Source: Methylocystis sp. (GTDB lineage Bacteria > Pseudomonadota > Alphaproteobacteria > Rhizobiales > Beijerinckiaceae). Taken from it: a stretch of 24,283 nucleotides of DNA. The position numbers and the translations under genes were made by a program. The stretch is taken from assembly GCA_022843525.1 (NCBI GenBank), contig JALHNR010000015.1, positions 1 through 24,283 on the forward strand. Reading direction: 5' to 3'. Position 1 is the stretch's first letter. Each line of letters starts with the position of its first letter. The notes under the pieces were generated by a model. The model saw only the letters and a list, made by a program, of their open reading frames with translations, was not told the DNA's origin and did no database searches. This document shows, piece by piece, positions 642 through 23,972 of this stretch.

Positions 642-1619
642 TTGGCTTCCGCGATCATTCGCATTGTTCTCTTAACGAGCGCCCTGGCGCTTGCAATAGG
701 CGCGCCGCAGCTGCGCGCCGAACCTGCGACGCCCATCAAGGGGACCGCCTATGTGACCTCGTGGTTCGGCGGCGTCGTTTCCGTTATAGATCTCGCATCA
801 GGCGCACTGAAGAAGAAAATCCCAGTCGGCATCCACAATCATAACGTCACGCTGCGTCCCGATCAGAAACAAGCTTGGGTCACGAACAACAACGCGGGAA
901 CCCTATCCATCATCGATACGCAAGCAAATAGCGTGATCAAGTCGCTGCCAACAGGAAAGGGTCCGCGACACATCTTTTTCAGCGCCGATGGCAAGGAAGC
1001 ATACGTTACGAACGAGTTCGACGACCGGGTGGAAATTTTTGACGCGCAGGCGGGTGCATCGCTTGGCGTCGTCAAGGCGGGCTCGATGCCGCATTTCGCG
1101 CTCGCTTCAGGCGACAGGCTTTTCGTCTCGAATTTCGGCGGCGGCGACGTGACGGTGCTCTCACGCGCAAAACGCCAGGCGCTCGCGACGATCGCTGTCG
1201 GAACGGGGCCGCTGGGCCAAGGCGCGACCAAGGACGGCAAGCGCGTCTATGTCGCCTGTCACAACGCCAATCACGTCGCCGTAATCGACGCCGAAAGCCT
1301 TCGGCGGATAGCGGATGTCGAGACCGATGCGGGCCCGGTGCAAGTCACGGTCGCACCAAATCAGACCTTCGCTTATGTCGCTAATGACGGGGCGGGCACG
1401 GTGCAGAAAATCGACCTTGCCGTGAACAAAGTCGTCAAAACGATCTCCATAGCGCCGGACGCGGGCAGTCACGGCGTCGGCTTCGCCGGCGACGGTCGCT
1501 GGCTCCTCATCACCAATACGGGAGCCAACAGCCTCTCGATCTTCGACACGCAGACGGATGAGATTGTGAAGACAATCTCCGTTCCGACAGCGCCTGAAGG
1601 CGTTGCGGTCCGGCGTTGA
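642..1619 (+). CDS. Secreted seven-bladed YVTN-type beta-propeller repeat protein
   Basis: 325-aa ORF. The TTG start at 642 lies 7 nt after GGAG (631-634). The N-terminus ASAIIRIVLLTSALALAIGAPQLRAEP looks like a signal peptide. There are seven roughly 40-aa repeats, each with a YVTN-like strand (AYVTS, AWVTN, AYVTN, LFVSN, VYVAC, AYVAN, LLITN). Confidence 0.85.
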   Translation: MASAIIRIVLLTSALALAIGAPQLRAEPATPIKGTAYVTSWFGGVVSVIDLASGALKKKIPVGIHNHNVTLRPDQKQAWVTNNNAGTLSIIDTQANSVIKSLPTGKGPRHIFFSADGKEAYVTNEFDDRVEIFDAQAGASLGVVKAGSMPHFALASGDRLFVSNFGGGDVTVLSRAKRQALATIAVGTGPLGQGATKDGKRVYVACHNANHVAVIDAESLRRIADVETDAGPVQVTVAPNQTFAYVANDGAGTVQKIDLAVNKVVKTISIAPDAGSHGVGFAGDGRWLLITNTGANSLSIFDTQTDEIVKTISVPTAPEGVAVRR

Positions 1620-1903
1620 AAAGCATCTTTGTTGCGAAACGGGGGAGACGCTCGCAATTCGATGGCGCCAGACTGCCCGAATCAGTCTTGTTCTCTTTAG
1701 CTATAACGGCGCTTCGAAATTCCACGGACTATCGTCCGTGCCGCGGGCGTCGTTTAGCAGCTTTCCCTGCCCGCAGCGGATCAGAGACTTAGTTGCGCCG
1801 CAAAAAATCCCAGCCGTTCATGAGGATGGCATTTCCCTCAAGTGTTGCTACATTTGGCTGCGGTACGCGTTTGTCCCGCACCCGCGTTAATTTCGCCTGA
1901 GCC

Positions 1904-2608
1904 GTGATGGAAATTATGCAACGATCTAATGCAGAGTGGCTGACGGCGCTTCAGGAGGGCGGTCGAGACCAACAGTTAGCGCTTGCGGACCTTCGAGCGC
2001 GACTGCTTGCGGCAATTCGGGCCTATTTGGCGAAAGGCTACGCCACGCAAGAATCAACGCGTTCAGATGAAGCGCAGCACCTTGCTGAAGACTGCGCACA
2101 AGAGGCCATTCTCATTATACAATCAAAACTTGGAGACTTTCGCGGCGAAAGCCGCTTTATGACTTGGGCTTATTCAATCGCAATCAGAGTCGTGCTCGGA
2201 GAGCTGCGCCGCCGTCGCTGGCGAGAAGCTACGATCGAGCGCGCTCAGCTTGGACAGACTTTGCCGGCTTGGCCGATTCAAGAACCGGGGCCGGAGCGCA
2301 GTCTACAGCAGCGCGAAGCGTGGACTCTACTGGCGCGACTTATCGGCGCCAAGCTTACTCCCTTGCAACGGACTGCACTTGTCGCTCACGCTTTTCAGGG
2401 AATGCCCTTGGACGAGGTCGCCGAATGGTTGGGTTCTAATCGGAATAGTCTTTACAAACTCATCCACGATGCGCGTAAACGGCTTAAGCAGGCTTTGCTC
2501 GAAGAAGGCGTGACGCACAAAGATCTTATTGCCGTGTTTGACGAGCCAAAATCGGGAACCCATCTCCATTCGGAGGGTAAGACTTCCTCCGTTCAACGCA
2601 TCTTATAA
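1904..2608 (+). CDS. ECF-type (group IV) sigma-70 family RNA polymerase sigma factor
   Basis: 234-aa ORF. It has a region-2-like segment FMTWAYSIAIRVVLGELRRRRW and a region-4 HTH LTPLQRTALVAHAFQGMPLDEVAEWLGSNRNSLYKLIHDARKRLKQAL. The start is ambiguous (GTG 1904, ATG 1907 or ATG 1916). Confidence 0.85.
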   Translation: MMEIMQRSNAEWLTALQEGGRDQQLALADLRARLLAAIRAYLAKGYATQESTRSDEAQHLAEDCAQEAILIIQSKLGDFRGESRFMTWAYSIAIRVVLGELRRRRWREATIERAQLGQTLPAWPIQEPGPERSLQQREAWTLLARLIGAKLTPLQRTALVAHAFQGMPLDEVAEWLGSNRNSLYKLIHDARKRLKQALLEEGVTHKDLIAVFDEPKSGTHLHSEGKTSSVQRIL

Positions 2609-2614
2609 TCAGTC

Positions 2615-2875
2615 GTGCCGGAACCCGACATGAAACACAAAGACTTTACCCGCCTCATTGACACCGTCTTCGCCGCTAAGAGCGGAGAGGAGATGCTGTG
2701 CACGGAATATTTTGATGAACTTCCACGTTACGTCGATATTGAGGCATCCGGTCAGGACGCCGGAGCCTTATTGCCCGAGGTTAAACACCATATGCATCAG
2801 TGCCCCGAGTGCGAAGAGGTTTATCTCGCCCTTCTGAGACTCGTGAACGCAGAAAAAACTTTTCCTTCGAGGTAA
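2615..2875 (+). CDS. Small soluble zinc-finger (ZAS-type) anti-sigma factor candidate
   Basis: The ORF begins 7 nt after the sigma stop (GTG 2615, or ATG 2630 giving 81 aa). It contains H-x3-C-x2-C (HMHQCPEC) plus an upstream Cys (MLCTEYF) about 30 residues earlier, which is the ZAS ligand pattern. No hydrophobic transmembrane segment is visible. Confidence 0.6.
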   Translation: MPEPDMKHKDFTRLIDTVFAAKSGEEMLCTEYFDELPRYVDIEASGQDAGALLPEVKHHMHQCPECEEVYLALLRLVNAEKTFPSR

Positions 2876-2929
2876 GACCTCAGAATTCCGTCGCATCTAA
2901 GTCGTATCGGATCGAACTGGTTGGCGCGC

Positions 2930-2946
2930 GCGATCGAATCGATCGC
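2930..2946. promoter_or_regulatory. Perfect 8-1-8 palindrome GCGATCGA-A-TCGATCGC upstream of the multicopper oxidase gene
   Basis: Read directly from the sequence. It lies about 42 bp upstream of ATG 2988, in the 112-bp gap between the anti-sigma and MCO genes. The binding factor is unknown. Confidence 0.3.
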
Positions 2947-2987
2947 CGGCATTGTCCCCGGTTCTCCGCTCGAAGGAGTGTGATGCG

Positions 2988-3965
2988 ATGCTAAGAACCT
3001 GGGCGCAGTTGGGGATTTCACGTTCGTTCGCGTTTTTGCTCATGTGGCCAGGCGCACTTCTCGCCGCTAGCGCAGCCTCTGCCGCCGACCAACATTTGAT
3101 CACGCTCAAAGCAAGCGCAATGCCGTCGGGTCAGCTGGCCTATGAGATGGTCAGTCACAAGGTCAAATCCTCCACAGGAAAGGAAAGCGACCTTATGGAG
3201 CGGTATGCGAGCGGTCCTACCATCCCTGGTCCCACGCTCGTCATGAAAGAGGGGGACGTCGCTGAGGTGACTCTTCAACATGGGATCGCCGACTCGGCTT
3301 TGCCGGTCAGCATCCATGTCCACGGCGTGCACTTCAAGATCGACAGCGATGGCACCATGAAGGTTTTGAATGGCGTCGCCGACGAAGCTGCGTTCCCAGA
3401 CAAACCTTACACATACAAATGGACGGCCGCGCCTGGAACGGCAGGCACGTGGGCCTATCACGATCATGCATTCGGCAATCCGATGCTCGGAGCCGAGGAC
3501 AAGGGGCTGTTCGGTACGCTCATCATCAATCCGGCGAGCGGGAAGGTTCCTGCGCTCATCGATGGCAAGATCGTCGACGTTGATCTTGCCGATGTGAAAC
3601 GCGAATTCATTATTTGGATGCATGAAACGACCTTTTGGGGCCAGGAGCTCAATCATATCATCGAGGGCGGCAAGGAGATTCCGTTATGGACTAATCCGAC
3701 CGTCGGTGCGCGCCTGGGCGAAAAGGTTCGCTTCCACGTCATGGGGCTTGGCACCGCGTTCCATACTTTCCATCTCCATGCGCATCGCTGGATCGAGCCC
3801 GGAGCAACCGCCGCCGTTGACACCGTCAACATTGGTCCAATCAGCCGCACCTCGTTCATCGTGAAGGCCGGCGAGGGTGTTGGCCCCGGCGACTGGCACT
3901 ACCACTGTCACGTTATCCAACACATGCAGTCTGGGATGATGGGTGATTTCCGCGTCATCGAATGA
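2988..3965 (+). CDS. Two-domain multicopper oxidase (small-laccase/SLAC-like layout)
   Basis: All four MCO copper motifs are present: HVHGVH, WAYHDH, HTFHLHAH and HYHCHVIQHMQSGMM. About 325 aa is too short for a three-domain MCO. The N-terminus MLRTWAQLGISRSFAFLLMWPGALLAASAASAADQ is signal-like. ATG 2988 is preceded by GAAGGAG (2972-2978). The ORF track extends to TTG 2952. Confidence 0.85.
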   Translation: MLRTWAQLGISRSFAFLLMWPGALLAASAASAADQHLITLKASAMPSGQLAYEMVSHKVKSSTGKESDLMERYASGPTIPGPTLVMKEGDVAEVTLQHGIADSALPVSIHVHGVHFKIDSDGTMKVLNGVADEAAFPDKPYTYKWTAAPGTAGTWAYHDHAFGNPMLGAEDKGLFGTLIINPASGKVPALIDGKIVDVDLADVKREFIIWMHETTFWGQELNHIIEGGKEIPLWTNPTVGARLGEKVRFHVMGLGTAFHTFHLHAHRWIEPGATAAVDTVNIGPISRTSFIVKAGEGVGPGDWHYHCHVIQHMQSGMMGDFRVIE

Positions 3966-3968
3966 TCA

Positions 3969-5834
3969 ATGACGAACGGGGGAGTTAAAGGCATGAACCA
4001 CGCAACAATCATGAACCGCGTATCCTTTCTGACGTTGGCCGTGGCGACGACCTCGCTCGCTGCGTCGCTGTCGGCGCAGGCGAAAGACGCCGTGAAATCT
4101 GACGACGTTATCATCAGCCGCCCCGGCGTCCTACCGTCGGCCGTGCTGGAGATGACCGACGAGCCCGGCAAATGGTTCAAGGATCCCAAGAGCGGCGGCT
4201 CGCTCGTTGTGGTGAAGCCTGGCGAGGCGGTGCTCATCAAGATGACGGACACCAATACGGATCACACCATCACCAGTCTTGCCTGGCAGCCGGGCGCGGA
4301 CAAATTCCCGGTCGATCAGGAGAAGCCGTCGAACGCCAGCGTCACGCAGACCTTCGACAAACCGGGGCTCTATGTCTTCACCTGCAAGGTTCATCCCTAC
4401 ATGTTCGGCGCCGTTGTCGTCGACGATCCGAAGACGGAAGGGCTGGACATCGGCGGCGAATTGCAGCTCGTGACCGGCGCCAAAGTTCCGACGACAAGCG
4501 ACATCGCCAAGAAGCTGCTGCGCACCTTCTTCGTCGCCACGACGCCGGCGCTATGGCGCGACTATCGGCAGCCGAAGTGGGAGGTGAAGCTTCCCGATCT
4601 CGGACTCAATCTCGGCGGCGCGCAGATCAATCTGAGCGCGCTCAGCCTCTCGGCGCCGAACACGCTGCTGACGCCCCAGACGCCCGGCGTCGGCGAGGTC
4701 TGGGTCAACACGCAGTTTGAAGGCGTGAGCGGCAAGACGAAGTTCGGAACGGCGACGCAAATCGACGCGACGGACTGGACGCTCAAGAAAAAAGTCAAGG
4801 GCGTCGAGCAGAATATGAACAATCCCCACAATATGTGGCCCGATCCGACATATAAATACATTTATCAGACGGAATGGTTCGACAAGCGGCTGACCACCTT
4901 TGACCGCGAGAGCGGCAAAGTTCTTAACACACAGGTCGTTGGACAAAATCCGTCTCATGTGATGACGAGCCCGATAACCGGCATGCTCTATGTCGCCATC
5001 AATGGCGAGGACCGCGTGGCGAAACTGTCGCCTGGCGAATTCCCTTCGGCGATGGGCAACATTAATGTCGGCTCGCATTCCGGCCCGCACGGCCATCACC
5101 TCACCGACGACGGCAAATATATGATGACGCCGAACGCGCTGGCGGGAAGCGTTACCGTCGTTGATCTCGCGACCGAGAAAGCGACGGAAATTCCGACCGG
5201 CGGCGTTATCCCGATCGCGATCTGGAGCGACATGAACCATAAGGGCTATGCCGCCAATCTGCTCGGCACGCCCCCCGCCATGCTCTCCTCATTGACGGTG
5301 ATCGACATTGACAACAAGAAGAAGGTCAAGGACATCGACCTCGCTGCCGATTACGATCCGATCAGCGGCGCGCACAAGGGCGAAGCTTATGGCCTGCTTC
5401 CGATCCAGACCCCGGTGAGCCCTGACGGCAAATACGTCGTTACGGCGAACACGTTGAGCGCCACGGTCACGATCGTCGATGTGAAGACGGACAAGGTGGT
5501 GAAAAGCCTGCCCTGCGAAGCAGGCTGCCACGGCGTCAACTTCGGACACAAGAAGGGAGGCGGCTATTACGCCTATGTGGCGAGCAAATTCGCCAATGAC
5601 TTGATCGTTATCGACATGGATAAGCTCGAAGTTGTAGGCCGCATTCTGCTCGCGGATTCTAAGGACGGTCAGATCAACGCGCATAACGGCATGGGTGGAC
5701 AGGGCGTGTTGCCCTTGCCGATCGTCGAGCGGGGCATGCTTGCGCCCACGCTAAAACTCGCGGGAACAGGCAAGTTGAGCGCCGAAGTCGAGGGATGGCT
5801 CAAGCTTCTAACCAAGGAGCAACGCGGCAACTGA
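3969..5834 (+). CDS. Secreted fusion protein: N-terminal type-1 cupredoxin (amicyanin-like) plus C-terminal YVTN-like beta-propeller
   Basis: 621-aa ORF starting 3 nt after the MCO stop. ATG 3993, behind GGAG (3981-3984), is an alternative start. The signal-like segment is MNRVSFLTLAVATTSLAASLSAQA. The cupredoxin ligand pattern is His in TDHTITS followed by C-x2-H-x2-M in FTCKVHPYM. Propeller blades follow (LYVAIN, YMMTPN, YVVTAN, AYVASK, each followed by v-v-D turns). Confidence 0.8.
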   Translation: MTNGGVKGMNHATIMNRVSFLTLAVATTSLAASLSAQAKDAVKSDDVIISRPGVLPSAVLEMTDEPGKWFKDPKSGGSLVVVKPGEAVLIKMTDTNTDHTITSLAWQPGADKFPVDQEKPSNASVTQTFDKPGLYVFTCKVHPYMFGAVVVDDPKTEGLDIGGELQLVTGAKVPTTSDIAKKLLRTFFVATTPALWRDYRQPKWEVKLPDLGLNLGGAQINLSALSLSAPNTLLTPQTPGVGEVWVNTQFEGVSGKTKFGTATQIDATDWTLKKKVKGVEQNMNNPHNMWPDPTYKYIYQTEWFDKRLTTFDRESGKVLNTQVVGQNPSHVMTSPITGMLYVAINGEDRVAKLSPGEFPSAMGNINVGSHSGPHGHHLTDDGKYMMTPNALAGSVTVVDLATEKATEIPTGGVIPIAIWSDMNHKGYAANLLGTPPAMLSSLTVIDIDNKKKVKDIDLAADYDPISGAHKGEAYGLLPIQTPVSPDGKYVVTANTLSATVTIVDVKTDKVVKSLPCEAGCHGVNFGHKKGGGYYAYVASKFANDLIVIDMDKLEVVGRILLADSKDGQINAHNGMGGQGVLPLPIVERGMLAPTLKLAGTGKLSAEVEGWLKLLTKEQRGN

Positions 5835-5851
5835 ACCATTGCAATTCAGCT

Positions 5852-5884
5852 CCGATGGATAGCCCCGAGCAGGGCTTCCATCGG
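5852..5884 (+). terminator. Long imperfect hairpin downstream of the cupredoxin-propeller gene
   Basis: CCGATGGA-T-AGCCC [CGAGCA] GGGCT-TCCATCGG starts 18 nt after the stop codon. It has a 13-bp stem with one bulge. No U-tract follows, so terminator function is uncertain. Confidence 0.35.
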
Positions 5885-5945
5885 GGTGATCAGTTGTTAC
5901 CGCAACAGACGCAGCACTCGCCGAATAATGTTAGGAGAAACGCGA

Positions 5946-6632
5946 ATGATCGAGCGTCAAGCCAACAAGACAGAACATCTGGTTTCGGCCCATGCAGATC
6001 GATTTCGTGACGGCCCGAGTCGTTTAATGGGTTTGGACAACAACTTTAGCGGAGTCCGAAGGTCGAAGCGTACCCAGGCTGAAGCTGAAGCGGCTGTGCG
6101 GGTTCTTATCGAATGGGCAGGCGACGATCCGAACCGCGAAGGTTTGATCGATACGCCTGAGCGGGTGGCGCGTTCTTATCGCGAATTGTTCGCTGGCTAC
6201 GCCGCCGATCCTCGCGAATATCTCAAGCGCACGTTCGAAGAAGTGGGCGGTTATGACGAGCTGGTCGTATTGAAGAACATCCGCGTCGTTACTTTTTGCG
6301 AACATCACATGCTGCCGGTGATCGGACGCGCGCATGTCGGTTACCTGCCGACAAACCGGGTCGTGGGAATCTCCAAACTGGCGCGGGTCGTGCACGGATT
6401 CGCGCGTCGATTACAGATTCAGGAGAAGCTAACCGCTGAGATCGCCGAAGCCATCCAGGAAATTCTCGAGCCGCAAGGAGTAGGAGTGGTCGTCGAGGCC
6501 GAACACAGTTGCATGACCTTGCGTGGCGTGAACACGCTCGGATCCACATTGACCACTAGCCGGTTACTCGGCGTAATCCGCGACGACGCCCGCTCACGAG
6601 AGGAATTCCTCGGCATGGTGCGCCGAGCCTAG
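5946..6632 (+). CDS. folE: GTP cyclohydrolase I (type 1, FolE)
   Basis: Family motifs are present: [54 protein letters not shown] and [16 protein letters not shown] 5946 follows AGGAG (5933-5937). The ORF track opens earlier, at 5886. Confidence 0.9.
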
Positions 6633-6745
6633 AATTTGGACCAGCGGCTGACGAAAGAAGCATTGGGAGCGGAACGCCATGGAAGATGGCATTCTCTAAG
6701 TTCTCCCGCTTGTAATTTTGCCTCGACCCGAGGGACCGGCTCTAG

Positions 6746-7018
6746 ATGGAGACCGTTGCACGAGCGTTGTCGCCGATAATAGCTCGAGCCTTGAATCTGG
6801 AAGACGGGGGGTTTCCAAATCTGGAGATCCGCAACGGTGAGCTCGTTGGAACGATAGTTGCTTGTGCGGTAGAAATGCGCGCTGACCTGATCGTTATGCA
6901 GACCGATGGTCGCGATAGCGCTTTGGACTCGATCATCGGGAGCACAACCGAGCGCGTCATACACGAAGCGCCTTGCTCCCTAGATGACGTGAACCGAGAG
7001 CGTCTGTTTGGAAGGTAG
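6746..7018 (+). CDS. Universal stress protein (UspA-family) C-terminal fragment, probably truncated
   Basis: The 90-aa ORF ends with the USP C-terminal signature ADLIVMQTDGRDSALDSIIGSTTERVIHEAPCS. An in-frame TAG sits immediately upstream of the ATG. The N-terminal half of a normal USP domain of about 140 aa is missing. Confidence 0.5.
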   Translation: METVARALSPIIARALNLEDGGFPNLEIRNGELVGTIVACAVEMRADLIVMQTDGRDSALDSIIGSTTERVIHEAPCSLDDVNRERLFGR

Positions 7019-7102
7019 CGGCGACTCGGGAACTTTCACAGGGTGCTTTGCTTTTTGATGCGCAGCGCCTGCCGGTTCGCTGCTGAGTTTCAGGAGGGCG
7101 TC

Positions 7103-9409
7103 GTGGAAAGCGCGCGTAAACTCTGGATCACGCTCATCGCCCTGTTGGTGCTCTCCTTTGCCGTGCTTCTGCTCATCGGCCGGGAAATAAGCGTCAAGGC
7201 GCCGCCTTTGCCCGAGCGCGTCGTTACGGAAACAGGACGCACGGTCTATACCCGTGCTGACATCGAGCGCGGGCGTCAGGTCTGGCAGTCCATCGGCGGC
7301 ATGCAGCTCGGCTCCGTCTGGGGCCATGGCGGCTACGTCGCGCCAGACTGGACCGCCGACTGGCAGCACCGAGAACTCGTCGCCATCCTGGACGCCTGGG
7401 CGCGCCGCGAGTTCGCGGCCGGCCGCTACGCTGATCTCAGCGAGGAGCAGCAGAGTTCTCTGCGGGGACGGCTGCGCCCGATGATGAGGCGAAACACCTT
7501 CGATCCGAAAACTGGGACAATTACTGTTTCTGAGGAGCGCGCTCAGGCGATCGACCTCGTCTCGAGCCACTATGAGAGCCTGTTCGGCGACGATCCGCGC
7601 AGTGCGGAACTTCGCGAGAACTACGCAATGAAGAACGGCACTGTCGACGACGCCGAGCATCGGCGGGCGCTAGGCGCCTTCTTCTGGTGGACCGCGTGGG
7701 CCGCGACCACGGAGCGGCCGGGAAGCCACGTCACCTACACCAACAACTGGCCGAGCGAACCGCTGGTCGACAACCGCCCGCCTGCGACCACCTTCATCTG
7801 GTCTGCGTTCAGCGTGGTATTCCTGCTTGCCGGCATCGGCCTGCTCGGCTGGCACCGCGCCGTCAGTCATGCACACGGCGCCGAGACGTGCGATGTGCCC
7901 GCGCGTGATCCGATGCGCAACGTAAGGGTCACGCCGTCCATGCGCGCGACCGCCAAATATTTTTGGGTGCTTCTTGCCCTGTTTCTCGTCCAGATCCTGT
8001 TCGGCGCCATAAGCGCCCATTACCAGGTCGAGGGGCAGCTGTTTTACGGCTACCCGATGGCGGAGATCCTCCCCTATTCGATCACCCGCACCTGGCACAC
8101 GCAATTGGCCGTGCTGTGGATCGCCACCGCCTGGCTCGGCACTGGGCTCTACATGGCGCCGGCGATTTCCGGGTACGAGCCCAAGTTCCAGGCGCTCGGC
8201 GTCAATGTGCTCTGGATCTGCTTGCTGATCATTGTGGTCGGCGCCTTCGCGGGCCAATGGCTCGCGGTCATGCAACGGCTGGGATTGGAACACAATTTCT
8301 GGTTCGGGCATCAGGGCTGGGAGTATGCCGATATCGGGCGTTTCTGGCAGTGGTTCCTTTTTATCGGCCTGCTGCTGTGGCTCTCCCTCGTCGGCCGCGC
8401 CTTGTGGCCGGCGCTACTGGCAAAAACTGAGTCACGCTCGATCGTCGCTCTTTTCTTCCTCTCGACGGTCGCAATTGGCCTGTTCTACGGCGCGGGGCTG
8501 ATGTGGAACGAGCATACGCATCTGTCGATGGTCGAATATTGGCGGTGGTGGCTGGTTCACTTGTGGGTGGAAGGGTTTTTCGAGGTGTTCGCCACCGCGG
8601 TCGTCGCCTTCCTGTTCACCCGCCTCGGCCTGGTCGCAGTCAAGCCGGCAACTTCGGCGGTGCTGTTCGCGACGATCGTCTTTATGGCCGGCGGCGTGAT
8701 CGGCACGCTCCATCATCTCTATTTCGCCGGCACTCCGATGTCGGTGTTGGCGCTTGGCGCCAGTTTCTCCGCGCTCGAAGTCGTGCCGCTCGCCTATATC
8801 GGCTTCGAGGCCTATGAGCATTGGCGGTTCTGCGGCGCCACGCCCTGGATGCAGCGCTATAAATGGCCCGTGCTGTTCTTCATCGCGGTCTCCTTCTGGA
8901 ATCTGGTGGGAGCCGGTCTGTTCGGTTTCCTGATCAACCCGCCGCTCTCGCTCTATTACATGCAGGGGCTCAACCTGACACCGCTGCACGGCCACACGGC
9001 GCTGTTCGGCGTCTATGGGATGCTCGGCATCGGCCTCGTGTTGTTCTGCCTGCGCGGAATGATGCCCGAACTCGTCTGGAACGAGAAGATCCTCAGCATC
9101 AGCTTCTGGTGCTTCAACGTGGGGCTGGGGATGATGGCGTTGTTCACGCTCCTGCCGCTCGGCACGCTGCAACTCCTTGCCGCGATCAATGAAGGTTATT
9201 GGTACGCCCGCTCTGAGCAGTTCATGCAGCAGCCGATCGTCGATCTTCTGGTATGGATGCGCGTGCCGGGCGACACGGTCTTTTCGATAGGCGCATTGGC
9301 CTTCGCCTGGTTCGTTGTCAGCCTGTGGCTCCGGCCGCGCCGCCAGCCTCATGAAGTGGAGCAGGAGGACAGGGAACTGGAGGCGGGACCGGCGAAGCGT
9401 GCGGCGTGA
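7103..9409 (+). CDS. norB: Quinol-dependent single-subunit nitric oxide reductase (qNor; NorB/NorZ type)
   Basis: The N-terminal extension (KAPPLPERVV, GSVWGHGGYVAPDWTADWQHRE) is fused to a multi-TM haem-copper-oxidase core (WVEGFFEVF, HHLYFAG, LHGHTALFGVYGM). The length of about 770 aa fits qNor, and no norC is adjacent. GTG 7103 follows AGGAGG (7092-7097). The ORF track opens at GTG 7043. Confidence 0.9.
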   Translation: MESARKLWITLIALLVLSFAVLLLIGREISVKAPPLPERVVTETGRTVYTRADIERGRQVWQSIGGMQLGSVWGHGGYVAPDWTADWQHRELVAILDAWARREFAAGRYADLSEEQQSSLRGRLRPMMRRNTFDPKTGTITVSEERAQAIDLVSSHYESLFGDDPRSAELRENYAMKNGTVDDAEHRRALGAFFWWTAWAATTERPGSHVTYTNNWPSEPLVDNRPPATTFIWSAFSVVFLLAGIGLLGWHRAVSHAHGAETCDVPARDPMRNVRVTPSMRATAKYFWVLLALFLVQILFGAISAHYQVEGQLFYGYPMAEILPYSITRTWHTQLAVLWIATAWLGTGLYMAPAISGYEPKFQALGVNVLWICLLIIVVGAFAGQWLAVMQRLGLEHNFWFGHQGWEYADIGRFWQWFLFIGLLLWLSLVGRALWPALLAKTESRSIVALFFLSTVAIGLFYGAGLMWNEHTHLSMVEYWRWWLVHLWVEGFFEVFATAVVAFLFTRLGLVAVKPATSAVLFATIVFMAGGVIGTLHHLYFAGTPMSVLALGASFSALEVVPLAYIGFEAYEHWRFCGATPWMQRYKWPVLFFIAVSFWNLVGAGLFGFLINPPLSLYYMQGLNLTPLHGHTALFGVYGMLGIGLVLFCLRGMMPELVWNEKILSISFWCFNVGLGMMALFTLLPLGTLQLLAAINEGYWYARSEQFMQQPIVDLLVWMRVPGDTVFSIGALAFAWFVVSLWLRPRRQPHEVEQEDRELEAGPAKRAA

Positions 9410-9421
9410 TCCGCCACTTGC

Positions 9422-9820
9422 ATGGAAGCCTATTACTTCGAGATTCGCGCTGTCCACATCGCGGCGGCGCTCGCGAGCGGCGGCTTCTACCTTATGCGCG
9501 CGCTCGCTTTAAACTTGCTCGCCGCGTCATGGCCGCTGTCGATAGTCGCGCGGCTTGCCTCCTACTCGATCGATACCGTGCTCTTTACGGCTGCCCTCAT
9601 GCTGATGGCCGTCACGCGTCAATACCCGTTTGGTGACACTTGGCTGACCATGAAGGTCGTGGTCATGCTGCCGCTCTATATTTTCCTTGGTTACTGGGCG
9701 CTCCGAGCCAAGGCGTTCAAGTTGCGGTTGGCGGCGATGGCCGGCGCGATCGCGGCTTTTCTTTTGATTTATAGCATCGCACGCACGCACAGCCCGCGGG
9801 GCGTGTTTGCGCTTGGGTGA
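9422..9820 (+). CDS. SirB2-like small integral membrane protein
   Basis: 132 aa with four hydrophobic segments. SirB2-like features are IRAVHIAAALASGGFYLMR, SIDTVLF and PFGDTWLTMKVV. It starts 12 nt after the norB stop, so it is probably co-transcribed. Confidence 0.65.
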   Translation: MEAYYFEIRAVHIAAALASGGFYLMRALALNLLAASWPLSIVARLASYSIDTVLFTAALMLMAVTRQYPFGDTWLTMKVVVMLPLYIFLGYWALRAKAFKLRLAAMAGAIAAFLLIYSIARTHSPRGVFALG

Positions 9821-9861: not shown

Positions 9862-11070
9862 TTACGTCGTTGGATGCAAGCGCTTCGTCGTCAACATCCC
9901 GAAATAGAGCAGCACGAAGAGCCCGTACGCCAAGCTCCACATGCCCCCGGCGGCGGCGATCGCAGCAAAGTAATACGCGCCCGTAAAAGGGGCGCCAATG
10001 CGCAGGATGGCCGCAAATGTTATGGCGATGTAGATCGCGGCCGTTCTCTGATCTGCGACGAGCGGGCGCCCGGTGTGGCCGCGCGTTGCACGAGTCATCA
10101 CCGCGAGCGTCATTGTTCCGATGGCGCCGACGGTGAGGGCATGCAGAGGCGCTGCAGAATCCGTGGCCCAGAATAGTTTGTTGCCGCCCATGAGCAGGAA
10201 GCCCAAGGGAACCCAGCCATATCCCAGATGCAGCACGAAGAGCATCGGTTCCGCCCGCGCGCTGACGCCGCGCCAGCGGATAAGACGTAGAAAGAGCGCC
10301 GCCCCGGCGATAATCAGGAGACCCGCCGTAGGCCCCGCGTCAGGGAACGCGGCCCAGGCGATGAGCGCCACAAGCGTCGCCGCCAGCGCGAAACGATCGA
10401 AAGCGCCGAAAGGCGCCGGCTCCACTTCAGCTGGCGAATTCTTCGCGAGCCAGTTGCGGGTGAAGCTCGGCGTGATGCGCCCCCCGATGATGGCGATGAG
10501 CATGACGAGGGTCGCGACGCCGACGCGGGCCCCGATGGCGCCCGTTGCGGCAAGGCCGATCGCTTCGAGATGCGTGAGCAAATTCCCGATAAAGAGAAGC
10601 GCAAGAGCGGCCACCATGGGCAAGTTGCGCCAGTTCCGCCCCGTGGCGATCTCGCGCGCGACAACGAAGATAAAGACCGCCGGGAAAGCGAGGTCGAGCG
10701 CCGCAGAGACGAGCGCAGGCGCACTATTTGAAGTCAGGACGGCGATGCGCCCCAGCAGCCAGAGAGCGACGAGGCCGGCGAGCGGCGCGCCTTGTAAGGG
10801 CAGTCGACCGGTCCAGTTTGGAATGGCCGTCAGCAAGAATCCCGCGACGACGGCGCCGCCAAAACCGAAGGCCATTTCATGCGCGTGCCAGAGAGAGGGC
10901 GCGAAGCGTGTCGGCAGTTCGGCCGCCGCCTCCAGATAGGCGATGGAGAGCGGCAGCCCGACAGCGGCCCAGAGCGCGGCAAAAAGGAAGAAGGGGCGGA
11001 AACCCGCTGAAAGAAAGATCGCCACAGGGTTTTGACTCGCCTGAGCGCGATATCGCGGAATTGGAGGCAT
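9862..11070 (-). CDS. nnrS: NnrS family haem/copper membrane protein (NO-stress associated)
   Basis: 402-aa polytopic membrane ORF. The N-terminus carries GFRPFFLFAALWA, WHAHEMAFGFGGAVVAGFLLTAIPNWTG and GRITPSFTRNW, typical of NnrS. It is convergent with the norB-sirB2 unit. Confidence 0.9.
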   Translation of the reverse strand: MPPIPRYRAQASQNPVAIFLSAGFRPFFLFAALWAAVGLPLSIAYLEAAAELPTRFAPSLWHAHEMAFGFGGAVVAGFLLTAIPNWTGRLPLQGAPLAGLVALWLLGRIAVLTSNSAPALVSAALDLAFPAVFIFVVAREIATGRNWRNLPMVAALALLFIGNLLTHLEAIGLAATGAIGARVGVATLVMLIAIIGGRITPSFTRNWLAKNSPAEVEPAPFGAFDRFALAATLVALIAWAAFPDAGPTAGLLIIAGAALFLRLIRWRGVSARAEPMLFVLHLGYGWVPLGFLLMGGNKLFWATDSAAPLHALTVGAIGTMTLAVMTRATRGHTGRPLVADQRTAAIYIAITFAAILRIGAPFTGAYYFAAIAAAGGMWSLAYGLFVLLYFGMLTTKRLHPTT

Positions 11071-11490: not shown

Positions 11491-11976
11491 ATGGCGCTCC
11501 GGCCAGCGCGACAAGCATATCGACTCGGTCGTCACGAGCTCCATCAGCTGCGCCTCGGTAAAATCCTCTGTCGCTGCTGGCCTTTCAGGAATTACGAAAC
11601 ACCGCGCCGTCCCGCTGCTGTCCCACACCCTGATCTCCGTTTCCTCGGGCAGTGGACGCCAACCTCGGCGAGCACTTTCCGCGGCTCGCGGGCCGCGCGG
11701 GCGCGAAATACCGGATCGGCAATCCCAGCACCGGCCATGGGAAGCACGAGCAAAGCGAGCAGATGATCAGGTTGTGCACCTCGGGCGCGTTAGCGACGGC
11801 CCGCAGGTGCTCGCCCTCGGCGCCGGCCATTCCCTCGGGCAGGTCGAGTTTGGCAATTGCGGCCGGGGTGTCGGCCAGGAGCCGGGCCAAGAAGCCCGCG
11901 TCGGTCCACGCTCGCACGACGATCTTTCTTGCCGTTGAGCGGACGCGGTCCTGCGGATACTTGAATGGCCGCTCAT
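11461..11976 (-). pseudogene. Nitrile hydratase alpha-subunit-like gene with multiple frameshifts
   Basis: The metal-binding claw motif is IICSLCSCFPWPVLGLP (codons at 11744-11761), preceded by RKIVVRAWTDAGFLARLLADTPAAIAKL. The C-terminal sequence continues in two other frames (DPVFRARAAREPRKVLAEVGVH, then LPEETEIRVWDSSGTARCFVIPERPAATEDFTEAQLMELVTTES). The ATG overlaps the beta stop (ATGA) but is out of frame with the conserved part. Confidence 0.8.
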
Positions 11977-12673
11977 GCAGGTTCCTCCAAGTATATCTCG
12001 AACAGTTCGGCGTAAAGCGTCTGCGCGCCGGGTTCCGCGCGCGGACCCCACAATTCGGTCGGCGTGAACTCGACGATGTAGACGGGCATTGGATCGCCGA
12101 TGCCATCGCCAGTGTGCCAGAAGTAGACACAGTCGCCTTCGAGCACCTGCGCCACCGTGCCGCTCCGCCCCCGCAGATAGCCGGGCAGGCGAGTGTGCGC
12201 GCCAACTGGGACATTTGCGATCCGGACCCGCTGCCCGACGGCGAACTTCGAATGCGCGACGTCGCGCCGCGGGCTGTCGCCGTTACGTAGATATGCGATG
12301 ATCTGCTCGTCGATGGCTTCAGCCCGATCGGATCCCCTGGCCGAGCGCCGTCCGGCCTGGCCGCTTCGCCACGCAGTTAGCTTGTCCGCGAGGCTAATTC
12401 GTCCTCGCGCAGGTATCCTTGTCGACGAGGAATGGGGATGCCGCTGAGCCACTTCTCGTAGTAACGGAATTTGAAGTAGTCGAATGGATCCATCGCCTCG
12501 GCGCCAGCGCGCAGATCCGCCCATGTCCACATGTCGCGGAAGGCGGTCGGCACGTAGGCGATCGCGCAGGCCGGCACGGACGAGTCGAGATGGCCCGAGA
12601 GAGCCATCATCGCCACATAGATGCCGAATATCCGATTTCCCACTGCCTCGGCAGGCTGGTTCAGAAAAAAGGG
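11973..12673 (-). pseudogene. Nitrile hydratase beta-subunit-like gene, 5'-truncated and frameshifted
   Basis: The N-half lies in one frame (12377-12643: DPFDYFKFRYYEKWLSGI). The C-half lies in another (FAVGQRVRIANVPVGAHTRLPGYLRGRSGTVAQV...VYIVEFTPTELWGP...LYAELFEIYLEEPA). An in-frame stop at 12674-12676 removes the usual first roughly 25 residues. No start codon is available for an independent C-half. Confidence 0.75.
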
Positions 12674-12817
12674 TCAATTCGGATCTGGAGCGCTTTTCCG
12701 ACGTTGTCCAAAATAGGCTCAGAGTTGTGGAAGGCAAAGGCCGCAACACGCCGACGGTGGAATCGGAGGATCAGGGACGACGCGCGCGGAAGATGCGGAG
12801 CGGCGGCGAATGAGCGC

Positions 12818-13261: not shown

Positions 13262-13987
13262 CTACTCTTCGCTGGCCAGCCCTTCCGCTTTACAGCGTTC
13301 GAGGACACCGGTCACGATGCGGTCGCACCGCGCGCCGGCGAAGGCGAAAACGTCGCTTAAGCCCGCGTCCATCTCCTGGGCAAGGCTTTCGCGCAACAGG
13401 CTGCTAGCTCGGAAGAAGCGCGTACGCACCGTCGCCTCGGGGATCTCCAGCGCCTCGGCGGTTTCTTCGACGCTCATCTCCTCGATCGCGCGCAGCATGA
13501 ACACCGTCCGGAAGGCCTCCGGCAGAAGGTCGATGCGCGCCTCCAAGAGCTTGCGCATCTGAACCCGCATCATCGATTGTTCTGGGCTACGCTCAGGCTC
13601 ATCGTTCAGCGCTGTCTGGGCTTCAGATTCATGGGGCGTCATGGCAGCTTCCAAAGGAATGATCTGGGCACTCTTTCGCCACAAGCGGCCGAGCGCTTCA
13701 TGGGTCGTGATCCGCACAAGCCAGGTATAGAGCTTGCTCTCGGCGCGATAGTTTCCAAGCGCGCGCCACGCCCGCAGATAGGTGTCCTGGACGACATCCT
13801 CCGCCTCCGCATCATTGTGCACGATGCTACGCGCCGTACGGAACAGAAGCTGGTTGTGCCGTCGCATGATGGCTTCGAACGCCACTCCGTCACCGTCAGC
13901 GGCGCGCGAGATCAGCTCTGCCTCCGGCGTGGTTTTCGATAAGCTATTTGCCGCCTGACGCTGAAGTGATTGCATTTGCGCCTCCAT
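13262..13987 (-). CDS. ECF-type sigma-70 family sigma factor with a short Cys-containing C-terminal extension
   Basis: Region 2 is AEDVVQDTYLRAWRALGNYRAESKLYTWLVRITTHEAL. Region 4 is LPEAFRTVFMLRAIEEMSVEETAEALEIPEATVRTRFFRA. A roughly 35-aa tail follows (DVFAFAGARCDRIVTGVLERCKAEG). ATG 13975, behind GGAGG, is an alternative start. Confidence 0.85.
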   Translation of the reverse strand: MEAQMQSLQRQAANSLSKTTPEAELISRAADGDGVAFEAIMRRHNQLLFRTARSIVHNDAEAEDVVQDTYLRAWRALGNYRAESKLYTWLVRITTHEALGRLWRKSAQIIPLEAAMTPHESEAQTALNDEPERSPEQSMMRVQMRKLLEARIDLLPEAFRTVFMLRAIEEMSVEETAEALEIPEATVRTRFFRASSLLRESLAQEMDAGLSDVFAFAGARCDRIVTGVLERCKAEGLASEE

Positions 13988-22168: not shown

Positions 22169-22917
22169 ATGAAGGCGCTCGTCGTGAACAATGAGAAGGG
22201 CGGCGTCGGCAAGAGCACGATCGCCGTGCATCTCGCCTGGTATTTTGCAGAGCGCGGTAAACGCGTTCTTTTCCTCGACCTCGATCCACAGAGCAATGGC
22301 ACAACGACGCTTGCGGCGCATGCTGTTGGGATCGACGCCGCTGCCCTCTTTGCGCGCCCGGTCGCCGTTCCATCGATGGCGAGCGCTGGCATTCGGGTCC
22401 TGGGCGGCAGCGCCGCCTTGCGCGGCATCGTCGCCGTAGACGGCAAGCTAATCGAACAATTCCGCTCCAATATTAAAGACGCGTCGCGCGCCTATGACAT
22501 TGCGGTCATCGACACGCCGCCAACCTTCGGCGTGCGCAATCTCGCGGCGTTGATCGCAGGTCAGTTCGTGCTGGCGTCGATCGACCTCGACGACTACGCC
22601 TCGAGGGCATTGAAACGCTGCTCAAGCACATCCTCGGCGTGAAGCAGAAATACAATTCCGGCCTCGAGATCCTCGGACTGATCCCCAATTGGCTGCAGAC
22701 AACCTCGCCGCACCAGCGGGAGAATTTGAAGAGCCTCGTCCAGAGGTTCGGCACGAAATACCTGTTCGACGGCGTGATCCCGCAACGCTCGTAGATCGGC
22801 GAGGCGTTGGCGGAGAAAAAGCCGGTCTGGAACTTACCGAAGACAGCGGCGCGCGAGGCCGGCCGCGAGATGCGCATCGTATTCGACAAGCTCGCGACGA
22901 AAATGGAGATGGCATGA
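22169..22917 (+). pseudogene. parA: ParA/Soj-type partition ATPase gene with one frameshift and one in-frame TAG
   Basis: The deviant Walker A is NEKGGVGKST, with VLFLDLDPQSN and IAVIDTPP. The reading frame changes near 22590-22602 (DLDDYA / LEGIETLLKHILGVKQKY...GLIPNW). TAG at 22792-22794 interrupts IPQRS-*-IGEALAEKKPVW. The final TGA (22915-22917) overlaps the parB ATG. Confidence 0.85.
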
Positions 22918-23972
22918 GCTACGCTCGCAAACTCGATGATGTCGCGTTGCTGCTGGACGAACTCGAGGGCCTCGAATCGTCTGCCTCGAGCGGCAAGCCT
23001 CTCGAAATCCCGCTTTCGTCAATCGAGGAAGACCCAGATCAGCCGCGGCGCGCTTTCGACGCCGAGACGCTGGAGGAGCTCGCGGCCTCAATCCGGGAAC
23101 GCGGCGTCCTTCAACCGATCGGCCTCACTCCAGTGGGTCTCAATGGAATGCACCGAACCGTCTTCGGGGCGCGGCGCTTTCGGGCGGCGCAACTCGCTGG
23201 CCGCGCGACGATCGCGGCGTTCATTCATTCGGGAGAGGCCAGCGACCCTTACGACCAGATGATCGAGAATATCCAGTGGGACGACGTTTGGGCCGCGGAT
23301 ATCGCCGCATTCATTGCTTCCCGCCTTGCGGCGGGCGAGAAGCAGAAGGACATCGCGCTGCGGCTCGGCAAGGACAAGAGCTATATCGCCATGTATGCGG
23401 CTGTCGCGCAAATGGCGCCCGTGCTGCGAGAGCGGTTAACGACCTCGCCGATCCGCGCCGTCTATGAATTGCATCAGATGTGGAGAAAGTTTCCGCGGGC
23501 CGTCGAGGCGTTTTGCGCGCAACATGACTCGTTCACCCGCGTACAAGTGGTCGCATTTTGCGAAGGTCTGAGCGGTCGGCCGCCGCGGACTGATGATTCG
23601 CCGCTGAGTGACGAACTGCATGACGCAGCCAATCCACATGACGACGGGGCCTTGCCGGGCGCGGATCGAAAGTTGAATTGCGCTCCGCAGGGACGGAAGC
23701 GTCGAACTCGGTCGGCTAGATCCATCCGGATGCGCTCGCGACGAAGCGCGGCGCCATTCGACACGACCAGAGCGACGGGCGTCCGAAGTGGCGCTGGCGA
23801 CGTTACGTGTCGAGCATGGGCAGCGTTACGGGCGGCTGTTGTTGGAGTGCGGATCGAGCAAGAGCGAGGCGCACGGTCTGGTCTTCTCTTCGAAGACGAC
23901 GGCACGGTCGAGGATGCGCCTCTCGCTGCGTTGCGGCTCGTGTCGCTGAAGATAGGCCTAGCGAATTCGTGA
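22914..23972 (+). CDS. parB: ParB/KorB-like partition and DNA-binding protein (C-terminal third possibly frame-disrupted)
   Basis: ATG 22914 overlaps the parA stop (ATGA). The ParB N-domain is LEIPLSSIEEDPDQPRRAFDAETLEELAASIRERGVLQPIGL and VFGARRFRAAQLAG. The HTH is EKQKDIALRLGKDKSYIAMYAAV. After about 23690 the in-frame sequence becomes Arg-rich. A KorB-like tail (LRVEHGQRYGRLLLE..., LFEDDGTVEDAPLAALRLVSL) is split between two frames. Confidence 0.75.
   Translation: MSYARKLDDVALLLDELEGLESSASSGKPLEIPLSSIEEDPDQPRRAFDAETLEELAASIRERGVLQPIGLTPVGLNGMHRTVFGARRFRAAQLAGRATIAAFIHSGEASDPYDQMIENIQWDDVWAADIAAFIASRLAAGEKQKDIALRLGKDKSYIAMYAAVAQMAPVLRERLTTSPIRAVYELHQMWRKFPRAVEAFCAQHDSFTRVQVVAFCEGLSGRPPRTDDSPLSDELHDAANPHDDGALPGADRKLNCAPQGRKRRTRSARSIRMRSRRSAAPFDTTRATGVRSGAGDVTCRAWAALRAAVVGVRIEQERGARSGLLFEDDGTVEDAPLAALRLVSLKIGLANS

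Follow-up and report, generated by a model that had tools for sequence, protein, structure and literature searches.

A 24,283-nucleotide stretch of Methylocystis sp. DNA (contig JALHNR010000015.1 of assembly GCA_022843525.1; this whole 24-kb stretch is called the window here) carries adjacent genes for a sigma factor with extracytoplasmic function (ECF) and a small cytoplasmic protein of the zinc-binding anti-sigma (ZAS) type. Coordinates are on the + strand unless stated otherwise. Taken as a whole, the locus is best explained by a cognate pair that controls both its own feedback and the downstream operon through a shared promoter motif, and that responds to a thiol-reactive, nitrosative signal. 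We give this explanation a probability of roughly 0.55. The proposed mechanism is as follows. (i) The sigma factor and the minimal zinc anti-sigma would form a cognate pair, in which C24, H54, C58 and C61 of the anti-sigma make up a Zn(Cys3His) site. (ii) The sigma gene would be transcribed from a promoter of its own that is not of the family type. (iii) In unstressed cells the sigma factor would be sequestered by the anti-sigma. (iv) A thiol-reactive signal would modify the Zn-thiolate site and free the sigma factor. This signal is most probably nitrosative stress, that is, hydroxylamine or nitric oxide (NO) arising from ammonia co-oxidation by methane monooxygenase. (v) The free sigma factor would recognize the sequence GGTAAGA-N15/16-GC(A/G)TCTnA. 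(vi) One copy of this motif (P_AS) would boost anti-sigma synthesis on top of read-through, providing negative feedback, and a second (P_MCO) would drive genes for a periplasmic multicopper oxidase (MCO), a cupredoxin/propeller fusion and folE. The computation establishes the pair of genes, the motif with its conservation and specificity, and which genes the paralogous modules contain. We infer the binding of sigma to anti-sigma, the binding of zinc, the identity of the motif's reader and the nature of the signal.

The ECF (group 4) sigma gene occupies positions 1907–2608 on the + strand, with alternative starts at GTG 1904, ATG 1907 and ATG 1916. The open reading frame (ORF) 1904–2608 encodes 234 amino acids (aa) counted from the GTG. 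RefSeq uses the equivalent of ATG 1907 (233 aa) on a 97.9%-identical plasmid, and most homologues start at the equivalent of ATG 1916 (230 aa). The product scores 79.2 bits against TIGR02937 (E 2.6e-22; cut-off 42.9). Sigma2 and sigma4 are its only domains, as befits group 4, and both exceed the curated family thresholds (Pfam Sigma70_r2, 34 bits against 24; Sigma70_r4_2, 34.4 bits against 25.7). The ECF assignment of a first-pass annotation is thereby borne out. No NCBIfam equivalog comes close to its cut-off, the top match being PRK11922 with 60.8 against 204 bits. The nearest solved relative in the PDB is only AlgU-like (E 1.5e-9). A multispecies RefSeq sigma protein from Methylocystis shares 99% identity with the window sigma factor. 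The same annotation had pointed to extra sequence between the region-2 elements and to a C-terminal tail of about 40 aa. Both features are real, with amendments from the sigma alignment: the former is a variable loop of 7–9 residues before the motif EDCAQE and is accompanied by an N-terminal extension of approximately 20 aa, and the tail measures 36 aa. Thirteen tail residues following region 4.2 are kept family-wide, and about 22 are specific to alphaproteobacteria. The codons of these alphaproteobacterial residues contain P_AS, with the conserved 'EGK' corresponding to the GGTAAGA element, so much of the tail appears to be an ORF running across a promoter. An invariant Cys in the region 2.1/2.2 motif EDCAQE (codon 2093–2095) stands where most ECF sigma factors have Leu or Val. 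It sits on the sigma surface usually covered by helix 4 of class I anti-sigmas.

The small anti-sigma gene, at 2630–2875 on the + strand, encodes 81 aa. Its ORF, in the same frame as that of the sigma factor, extends over 2615–2875 (86 aa); homologues and RefSeq place the start at ATG 2630. Numbered from this codon, the only cysteines are C24, C58 and C61. Together with H54 they form C24-x29-H54-x3-C58-x2-C61, the ZAS signature of H-x3-C-x2-C plus an upstream Cys/His ligand. The four predicted ligand codons span 2699–2812 (C24, 2699–2701; H54, 2789–2791; C58, 2801–2803; C61, 2810–2812). The Kyte–Doolittle mean over 19 residues peaks at 0.44, so the protein has no membrane segment. The earlier description of a small, soluble, zinc-motif anti-sigma therefore stands. 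Every full-length member of an alignment of 25 sequences keeps all four ligands, and the same positions are almost invariant in 61 remote relatives. Close homologues make up 73 clusters among 5.8 billion proteins, each labelled hypothetical, with Methylocystis, Methylocella and some Gammaproteobacteria as hosts. A profile search of 1.84 billion representatives retrieved 943 remote relatives at E ≤ 1e-3, mostly 75–125 aa long and matched over their full length. The 61 that were scanned connect the family to recognized anti-sigmas: 44 match the RsrA model, 22 match zf-HC2 at E ≤ 0.01 (best 1.1e-6) and seven match the NCBIfam 'anti-sigma factor' model. Four carry RskA_C behind a membrane segment, and two are fused to ECF sigma domains.

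The window protein itself lies below the thresholds of these models. It reaches 10.1 bits with zf-HC2 (gathering threshold 22.2) and has no Pfam match above threshold; 15 of 25 close homologues match zf-HC2, merely at E ≤ 10. Its sole family match is the RsrA model TIGR03988, at a sub-threshold 20.3 against 62.5 bits. Foldseek against the PDB returned nothing significant (RslA at rank 5, E 6.3), and phmmer and hmmsearch with the protein or its family gave chance matches only among PDB sequences. The class I anti-sigma domain (ASDI) has four helices: three form a bundle that binds sigma4, and the last, which follows a linker, binds sigma2 (PMC7406223). The small protein stops 20 residues past CxxC and so ends without helix 4; the four-helix layout of the ASDI is not found in it. 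Modelling suggests an extra conserved N-terminal helix spanning residues 3–17, at lower model confidence, and a short additional C-terminal helix of the form P-x-V-D-E-L is kept in some remote relatives. An hhalign comparison of the family with RsrA gave E 4e-4 over 43 columns with a 4-residue insertion, and paired the ligands one by one with RsrA C11/H37/C41/C44. This alignment serves as a lead rather than a test. Of the 'RsrA-like architecture' proposed in the first-pass annotation, the one-to-one match of the zinc ligands holds; the rest does not, given the missing helix 4, the added N-terminal helix and the failed RsrA and zf-HC2 thresholds. The protein is not an orthologue of RsrA. The small protein is predicted to be a real, divergent and minimal anti-sigma of the ZAS type.

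Comparison with characterized pairs makes the kinship and its limits clear. SigR–RsrA of Streptomyces coelicolor and SigH–RshA of Mycobacterium tuberculosis likewise involve a soluble anti-sigma encoded directly 3' of an ECF sigma gene, with ligands C-xN-H-x3-C-x2-C that align one-to-one with those of the window protein. By likeness to SigR–RsrA, a thiol-based switch would be the expected mechanism. NO, heat and oxidants all induce SigH expression (PMC4803200). Relative to RsrA, the window protein differs in the 4-residue insertion, which falls between the first Cys and the His, and in having just three cysteines, besides the two helix differences. The promoter differs from that of SigR–RsrA as well (GGTAAGA...GCATCTAA), and no sigma-dependent promoter was found before the sigma gene. 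The proteobacterial host implies an absence of mycothiol, unlike the actinobacterial RsrA/SigR system. ChrR of Rhodobacter sphaeroides, RsiW of Bacillus subtilis and RslA of M. tuberculosis have helix 4 and a membrane or cupin sensor, whereas the window protein consists of nothing more than a bundle plus an N-terminal helix. The role of zinc varies among characterized anti-sigmas: it is sensory in RsrA, needed for binding in ChrR and structural in RsiW (PMC7406223). In the window protein it may play any of these parts.

The pairing of the two genes is widely conserved. The set of loci analysed comprises 46 genome loci plus metagenome contigs from Alphaproteobacteria, Gammaproteobacteria and Binatia. 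The small gene is adjacent to and co-oriented with the sigma gene in 43 of the 46 genome loci and in the metagenome contigs, as is typical of genes for ASDI proteins. In the three exceptions (L035, L038 and L051) the sigma match is missing, past the contig end or frameshifted. The distance from sigma stop to small-gene start ranges from 2 to 260 nt.

Alignment of the DNA past the anti-sigma stop from many loci revealed a conserved block, GGTAAGA, a 15/16-nt spacer and GC(A/G)TCTAA, amid divergent non-coding sequence. The family motif, GGTAAGA-N15/16-GC(A/G)TCTnA, is bipartite and of ECF type, and the window holds two copies. The predicted anti-sigma promoter P_AS (2576–2605, +) has its −35 element GGTAAGA at 2576–2582 and its −10 element GCATCTTA at 2598–2605. 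It sits within the final 11 codons of the sigma gene, 25 nt ahead of ATG 2630, and matches the strict pattern at 2577–2605 with one mismatch. The predicted promoter of the MCO, fusion and folE genes, P_MCO (2871–2900, +), has its −35 element GGTAAGA at 2871–2877, overlapping the anti-sigma stop codon, and its −10 element GCATCTAA at 2893–2900. The exact string GTAAG-N18-20-TCTAA occurs once in the window, at 2872–2900, against 0.01 expected. Both positions are filled in almost every locus examined, in two paralogous module types described below and in Alphaproteobacteria, Gammaproteobacteria and one Binatia metagenome-assembled genome (MAG). P_MCO is kept at the same place in all three groups; one locus (L034) lacks the P_AS equivalent, and a few more have it displaced or in degenerate form. 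Gammaproteobacteria have both copies between genes, whereas in alphaproteobacteria one overlaps the 3' end of the sigma gene and the other the stop codon of the anti-sigma gene. It is therefore the DNA element that is conserved, rather than the protein-coding sequence. The sister plasmid pGW6_2 of Methylocystis rosea GW6, a complete sequence of 219 kb that is 97.9% identical to the window over 1800–6700, holds five strict sites against 0.14 expected, all in or beside its two sigma/anti-sigma modules: before each of the two anti-sigma genes, the MCO gene, a truncated haemoglobin gene and a divergent 182-aa gene.

Across the loci, 91 distinct sites were collected. At positions left unconstrained by the search, G precedes GTAAGA in 64 of the 91, G precedes C(A/G)TC in 67, and the final A is present in 88. 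The motif might instead be the operator of a dimeric transcription factor, such as an Rrf2/NsrR-like repressor, the pair having other targets. TAAGA/TCTAA does form an imperfect inverted repeat, the halves TAAGA/TCTTA at 2577–2605 are exactly complementary, and NsrR boxes contain AAGAT...ATCTT. Such a palindromic operator is nonetheless judged highly unlikely. The right half over the 91 sites is C(A/G)TC(T/C)nA, with TCTAA dominant, and in most of them the two halves are not complementary. Every site found faces its downstream ORF at a promoter-like distance of approximately 10–280 nt from the start, and the motif accompanies the sigma/anti-sigma pair irrespective of which effector gene follows. 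The layout, with its −35-like element, fixed short spacer and CGTC/TCTAA-like −10, is by its sequence that of an ECF promoter. Co-occurrence then argues strongly that the adjacent sigma factor reads it. A third copy, GTAAGATTTCGTCTTTTCATCACATCTAAG, begins 3 nt to the left of window position 1 (L054 7170–7205, minus strand; L008 3380, minus strand). It faces the divergent gene for a secreted hypothetical protein of 182 aa, the first 45 residues of which share 51% identity with the N-terminal part of the cupredoxin/propeller fusion.

The predicted target operon (2988–6632, +) encodes a two-domain MCO (2988–3965), a cupredoxin/beta-propeller fusion (3969–5834) and FolE, a GTP cyclohydrolase I (ORF 5886–6632; the RefSeq start is equivalent to about 6027), as identified from Pfam and NCBIfam. 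The MCO start lies 112 nt past the pair, in agreement with the first-pass placement of the pair directly upstream of copper genes. The proposal made there that the sigma factor drives the MCO and fusion genes gains good support from the conserved ECF-type motifs before the anti-sigma gene and before this operon. On the + strand past the anti-sigma gene, the sole terminator-like site (3559–3577) falls inside the MCO ORF and is at chance level; the terminator scan gave five matches in all, not above shuffled sequence. The predicted 5' leader of the MCO mRNA (2901–2987, +) may form a GC-rich hairpin. RNAalifold on 10 alphaproteobacterial leaders gave 25 pairs, mostly with one-sided changes and a covariation term of only −0.37, so the evidence for this hairpin is weak. 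The sequence GATGCGATG(A) at the MCO start codon is kept from alpha- to gammaproteobacteria, and a mini-ORF of 2–3 codons (ATG CGA TGA, or ATG CGA TGC TAA) overlaps the MCO ATG. The 5' end of the alphaproteobacterial leaders (GCATCG-type) is complementary to the conserved GATGCGATG, and pairing between leader and start codon could provide translational control. The FolE paralogue (window 5886–6632; also L018 and L044) is found repeatedly behind the motif, sometimes as the sole effector. As FolE is a Zn/Cys enzyme, one might speculate that this is a stress-replacement copy.

The nature of the signal is best approached through the paralogous modules. Mapping by tblastn across all loci distinguishes two types of pair, T1 and T2, which are often found in one genome and are both present on pGW6_2. 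Behind the T1 pair come the genes for the two-domain MCO and the cupredoxin/beta-propeller fusion, in many cases with folE next. The T2 pair, with a sigma factor about 60% identical and an anti-sigma 66–75% identical to those of T1, precedes genes for a group-1 truncated haemoglobin and a 2Fe-2S/FAD/NAD reductase. On pGW6_2 the T2 module occupies 80165–82663 (L057 30165–32663), with an 81-aa anti-sigma and the motif before the anti-sigma and globin genes; T2 modules also occur in L024–L045. In L018, L044 and L003, folE stands alone behind the anti-sigma. A Beijerinckiaceae MAG (L046 5298–9080) has the pair followed by haoA-haoB, the genes for hydroxylamine oxidoreductase, with merely a degenerate motif (GATAGC-N18-TCTAA) after the anti-sigma stop. 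In L007 the T1 module adjoins haoAB, and in L027 an NnrS fragment lies upstream of the T2 module; NnrS, qNor or HaoAB recur as neighbours of modules. Truncated haemoglobin N (trHbN) is an NO dioxygenase, HaoAB oxidizes hydroxylamine, and NnrS and qNor handle NO. This gene content favours a nitrosative or hydroxylamine signal over Cu(I), and the common denominator of the modules would be hydroxylamine/NO stress rather than copper. In a proteomics study, multicopper oxidases encoded on plasmids, possibly including a counterpart of the window MCO, are reported among the most upregulated proteins of Methylocystis sp. SC2 at high ammonium, where hydroxylamine stress was deduced (PMC9600857).

Copper offers a second candidate signal. 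Cu(I) would displace zinc at the Cys3His site and free the sigma factor to express the MCO and the cupredoxin fusion, as an anti-sigma analogue of CorE. In its favour, the targets next to the pair in the window are copper proteins, the sister plasmid pGW6_2 holds genes for a CusA-type protein and a copper P-type ATPase, and copper is a master signal in methanotrophs. Paralogous pairs with the same motif and ligands, however, drive effectors unrelated to copper: the haem proteins trHbN and HaoAB, the flavin/FeS reductase and folE. The resemblance to CorE of Myxococcus xanthus, a copper-regulated ECF sigma factor, lies in an ECF sigma factor upstream of copper-handling genes that include an MCO. 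CorE reportedly has no anti-sigma and senses copper through a C-terminal Cys-rich domain. The window sigma factor differs on both counts: a separate anti-sigma is present, and the 36 C-terminal residues, checked for a CorE-like Cys-rich tail, contain no Cys at all. Sensing of copper is considered improbable.

The region before the sigma gene bears on how the response might be induced. Regular-expression scans of the loci and of the sister plasmid found no family motif there; a possible exception is a site in L040, about 1 kb upstream of the sigma gene and fronting a small ORF. A look-alike at 1862–1891 (GGTACGC-N15-GCGTTAAT) stands in the right register for sigma autoregulation. It was rejected because its most conserved positions are broken and its −35-like part is not kept in a close relative (L014). 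A visual alignment of the DNA before the sigma gene in alphaproteobacterial, gammaproteobacterial and Binatia loci brought out a different conserved block at 1826–1854 on the + strand (ATGGCATTT ... GTTGCTACATT), of the form ATGGCxTTT ... GTTGYTACATT. Its TGTTAC core recurs in the gammaproteobacterial and Binatia loci. This block matches neither the family motif nor the sigma-70 consensus nor any nameable operator consensus; it could serve as an operator, or as a promoter for the sigma gene itself. A sigma-70 promoter scan of 1600–7100 found none, and Rfam recognizes no known RNA within 1600–3100. A terminator-like hairpin at 1670–1688 may separate the sigma gene from the upstream YncE-like gene, but the scan that detected it yields no more sites than shuffled sequence.

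Several of these observations weigh against the proposed sensing switch. As the scans found no family-type promoter before the sigma gene, induction may proceed through sigma transcription by another regulator. Class I anti-sigma domains are defined by a sigma2-binding helix 4, which the small protein lacks. It is co-occurrence that links the motif to the sigma factor, and since the T1 and T2 paralogues share it, either sigma factor could read each promoter. Literature searches aimed at such a system in methanotrophs, Methylocystis included, gave no publication on it within the library covered. Finally, a ZAS motif may have no more than a structural role, as it does in RsiW, and membrane-bound anti-sigmas carry such motifs just as often (PMC7406223). 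These points lend themselves to another scheme, in which the zinc site is structural and induction occurs by sigma transcription (under an NsrR-, NnrR/FNR- or general-stress-type regulator at 1826–1854) or by anti-sigma proteolysis, with P_AS setting the gain and shutting the response off. The conserved block upstream of the sigma gene and the hairpin suggestive of a separate sigma transcript would also fit. The failure of the block to resemble any named operator or promoter speaks against this scheme, as does the absence of any other signal-receiving domain in the 81-aa protein, for which direct sensing by the Zn-thiolate site would be the simplest mechanism. Soluble members make up approximately 35% of the class I anti-sigma domains, and about 72% of these members carry the zinc motif, an over-representation consistent with redox sensing (PMC7406223). 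Direct Zn-thiolate sensing also fits this distribution. We regard regulation through sigma transcription or proteolysis as unlikely, though the most serious competitor to the thiol switch.

The thiol switch would differ in kind from established NO regulators. NsrR, NnrR/DNR and NorR probably share the output of the present system, namely NO dioxygenases of the truncated or flavo-haemoglobin type, NnrS/qNor and hydroxylamine oxidoreductase. They are one-component repressors or activators with Fe-S, haem or non-haem iron sensors, whereas a sigma/anti-sigma switch with a Zn-thiolate site is predicted here. The feedback layout has a parallel in E. coli rpoE-rseA, where a sigmaE-dependent promoter inside rpoE drives rseA. 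That system shares the promoter internal to the sigma ORF, a TCTAA-like −10 element and similar −35/−10 spacing. RseA differs in being a membrane protein without zinc that is released by proteolysis, and rpoE is positively autoregulated through a promoter of a kind not seen here. The text of the ECF classification paper makes no mention of multicopper oxidase or globin contexts (PMC7826278).

Soluble ZAS anti-sigmas as such are a known kind. The family described here appears to be set apart by its unannotated, sub-threshold sequences, by the lack of helix 4 combined with an N-terminal helix, and by a sigma-dependent promoter serving the anti-sigma alone. It also appears tied to N-oxide detoxification genes in methanotrophs, for whose control one would have looked to NsrR, NnrR or NorR. 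A tentative extension, against which the odds stand, is that this is the first ECF switch dedicated to hydroxylamine/NO stress. The helix-4-less 81-aa Zn(Cys3His) anti-sigma would be nitrosated or oxidized directly, its N-terminal helix possibly contacting sigma2, and the sigma factor thus freed would command a regulon of HaoAB, truncated haemoglobin and its reductase, folE, and the MCO with the cupredoxin/propeller fusion. Methanotrophs form toxic hydroxylamine and NO when ammonia competes with methane at methane monooxygenase. The control of detoxification in these organisms, and hence of N2O release, is poorly understood. A named regulator pair, a promoter motif searchable in genomes and a small predicted regulon are now provided for testing. 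That regulon connects the MCO and the cupredoxin/propeller fusion with HaoAB, truncated haemoglobin, NnrS and qNor; if the proposal is correct, these uncharacterized enzymes would be new players in the hydroxylamine and NO turnover of methanotrophs. For sigma factor biology, the work points to an unannotated family of minimal ZAS anti-sigmas with approximately 940 cluster representatives, whose Methylocystis-type members are labelled 'hypothetical', and which combines an uncommon arrangement of helices with a feedback promoter serving the anti-sigma gene only.

The rest of the window is consistent with a plasmid-borne (megaplasmid) N-oxide island. Downstream of the operon lie genes for a qNor with an N-terminal cytochrome-c-like domain (7043–9409) and a SirB2-like protein (9422–9820), followed on the minus strand by NnrS (9862–11070), nitrile-hydratase-like alpha and beta genes (11585–12749) and a second, unrelated ECF sigma factor (13262–13987). 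A ParB/KorB gene is found at 22689–23972. Two other loci show further arrangements of the module. On a gammaproteobacterial contig (L005 2759–4763) it lies 5 kb from a BufA1/MbnB-like/HvfC set, which specifies a bufferin-type copper-binding ribosomally synthesized and post-translationally modified peptide. A Methylocella-type locus (L003 9287–14892, the same as L023 and L004) contains a partial duplication in the order sigma, anti-sigma, folE, a 57-codon sigma 3' fragment, a second anti-sigma, MCO and fusion, and the 57-codon fragment retains the promoter.

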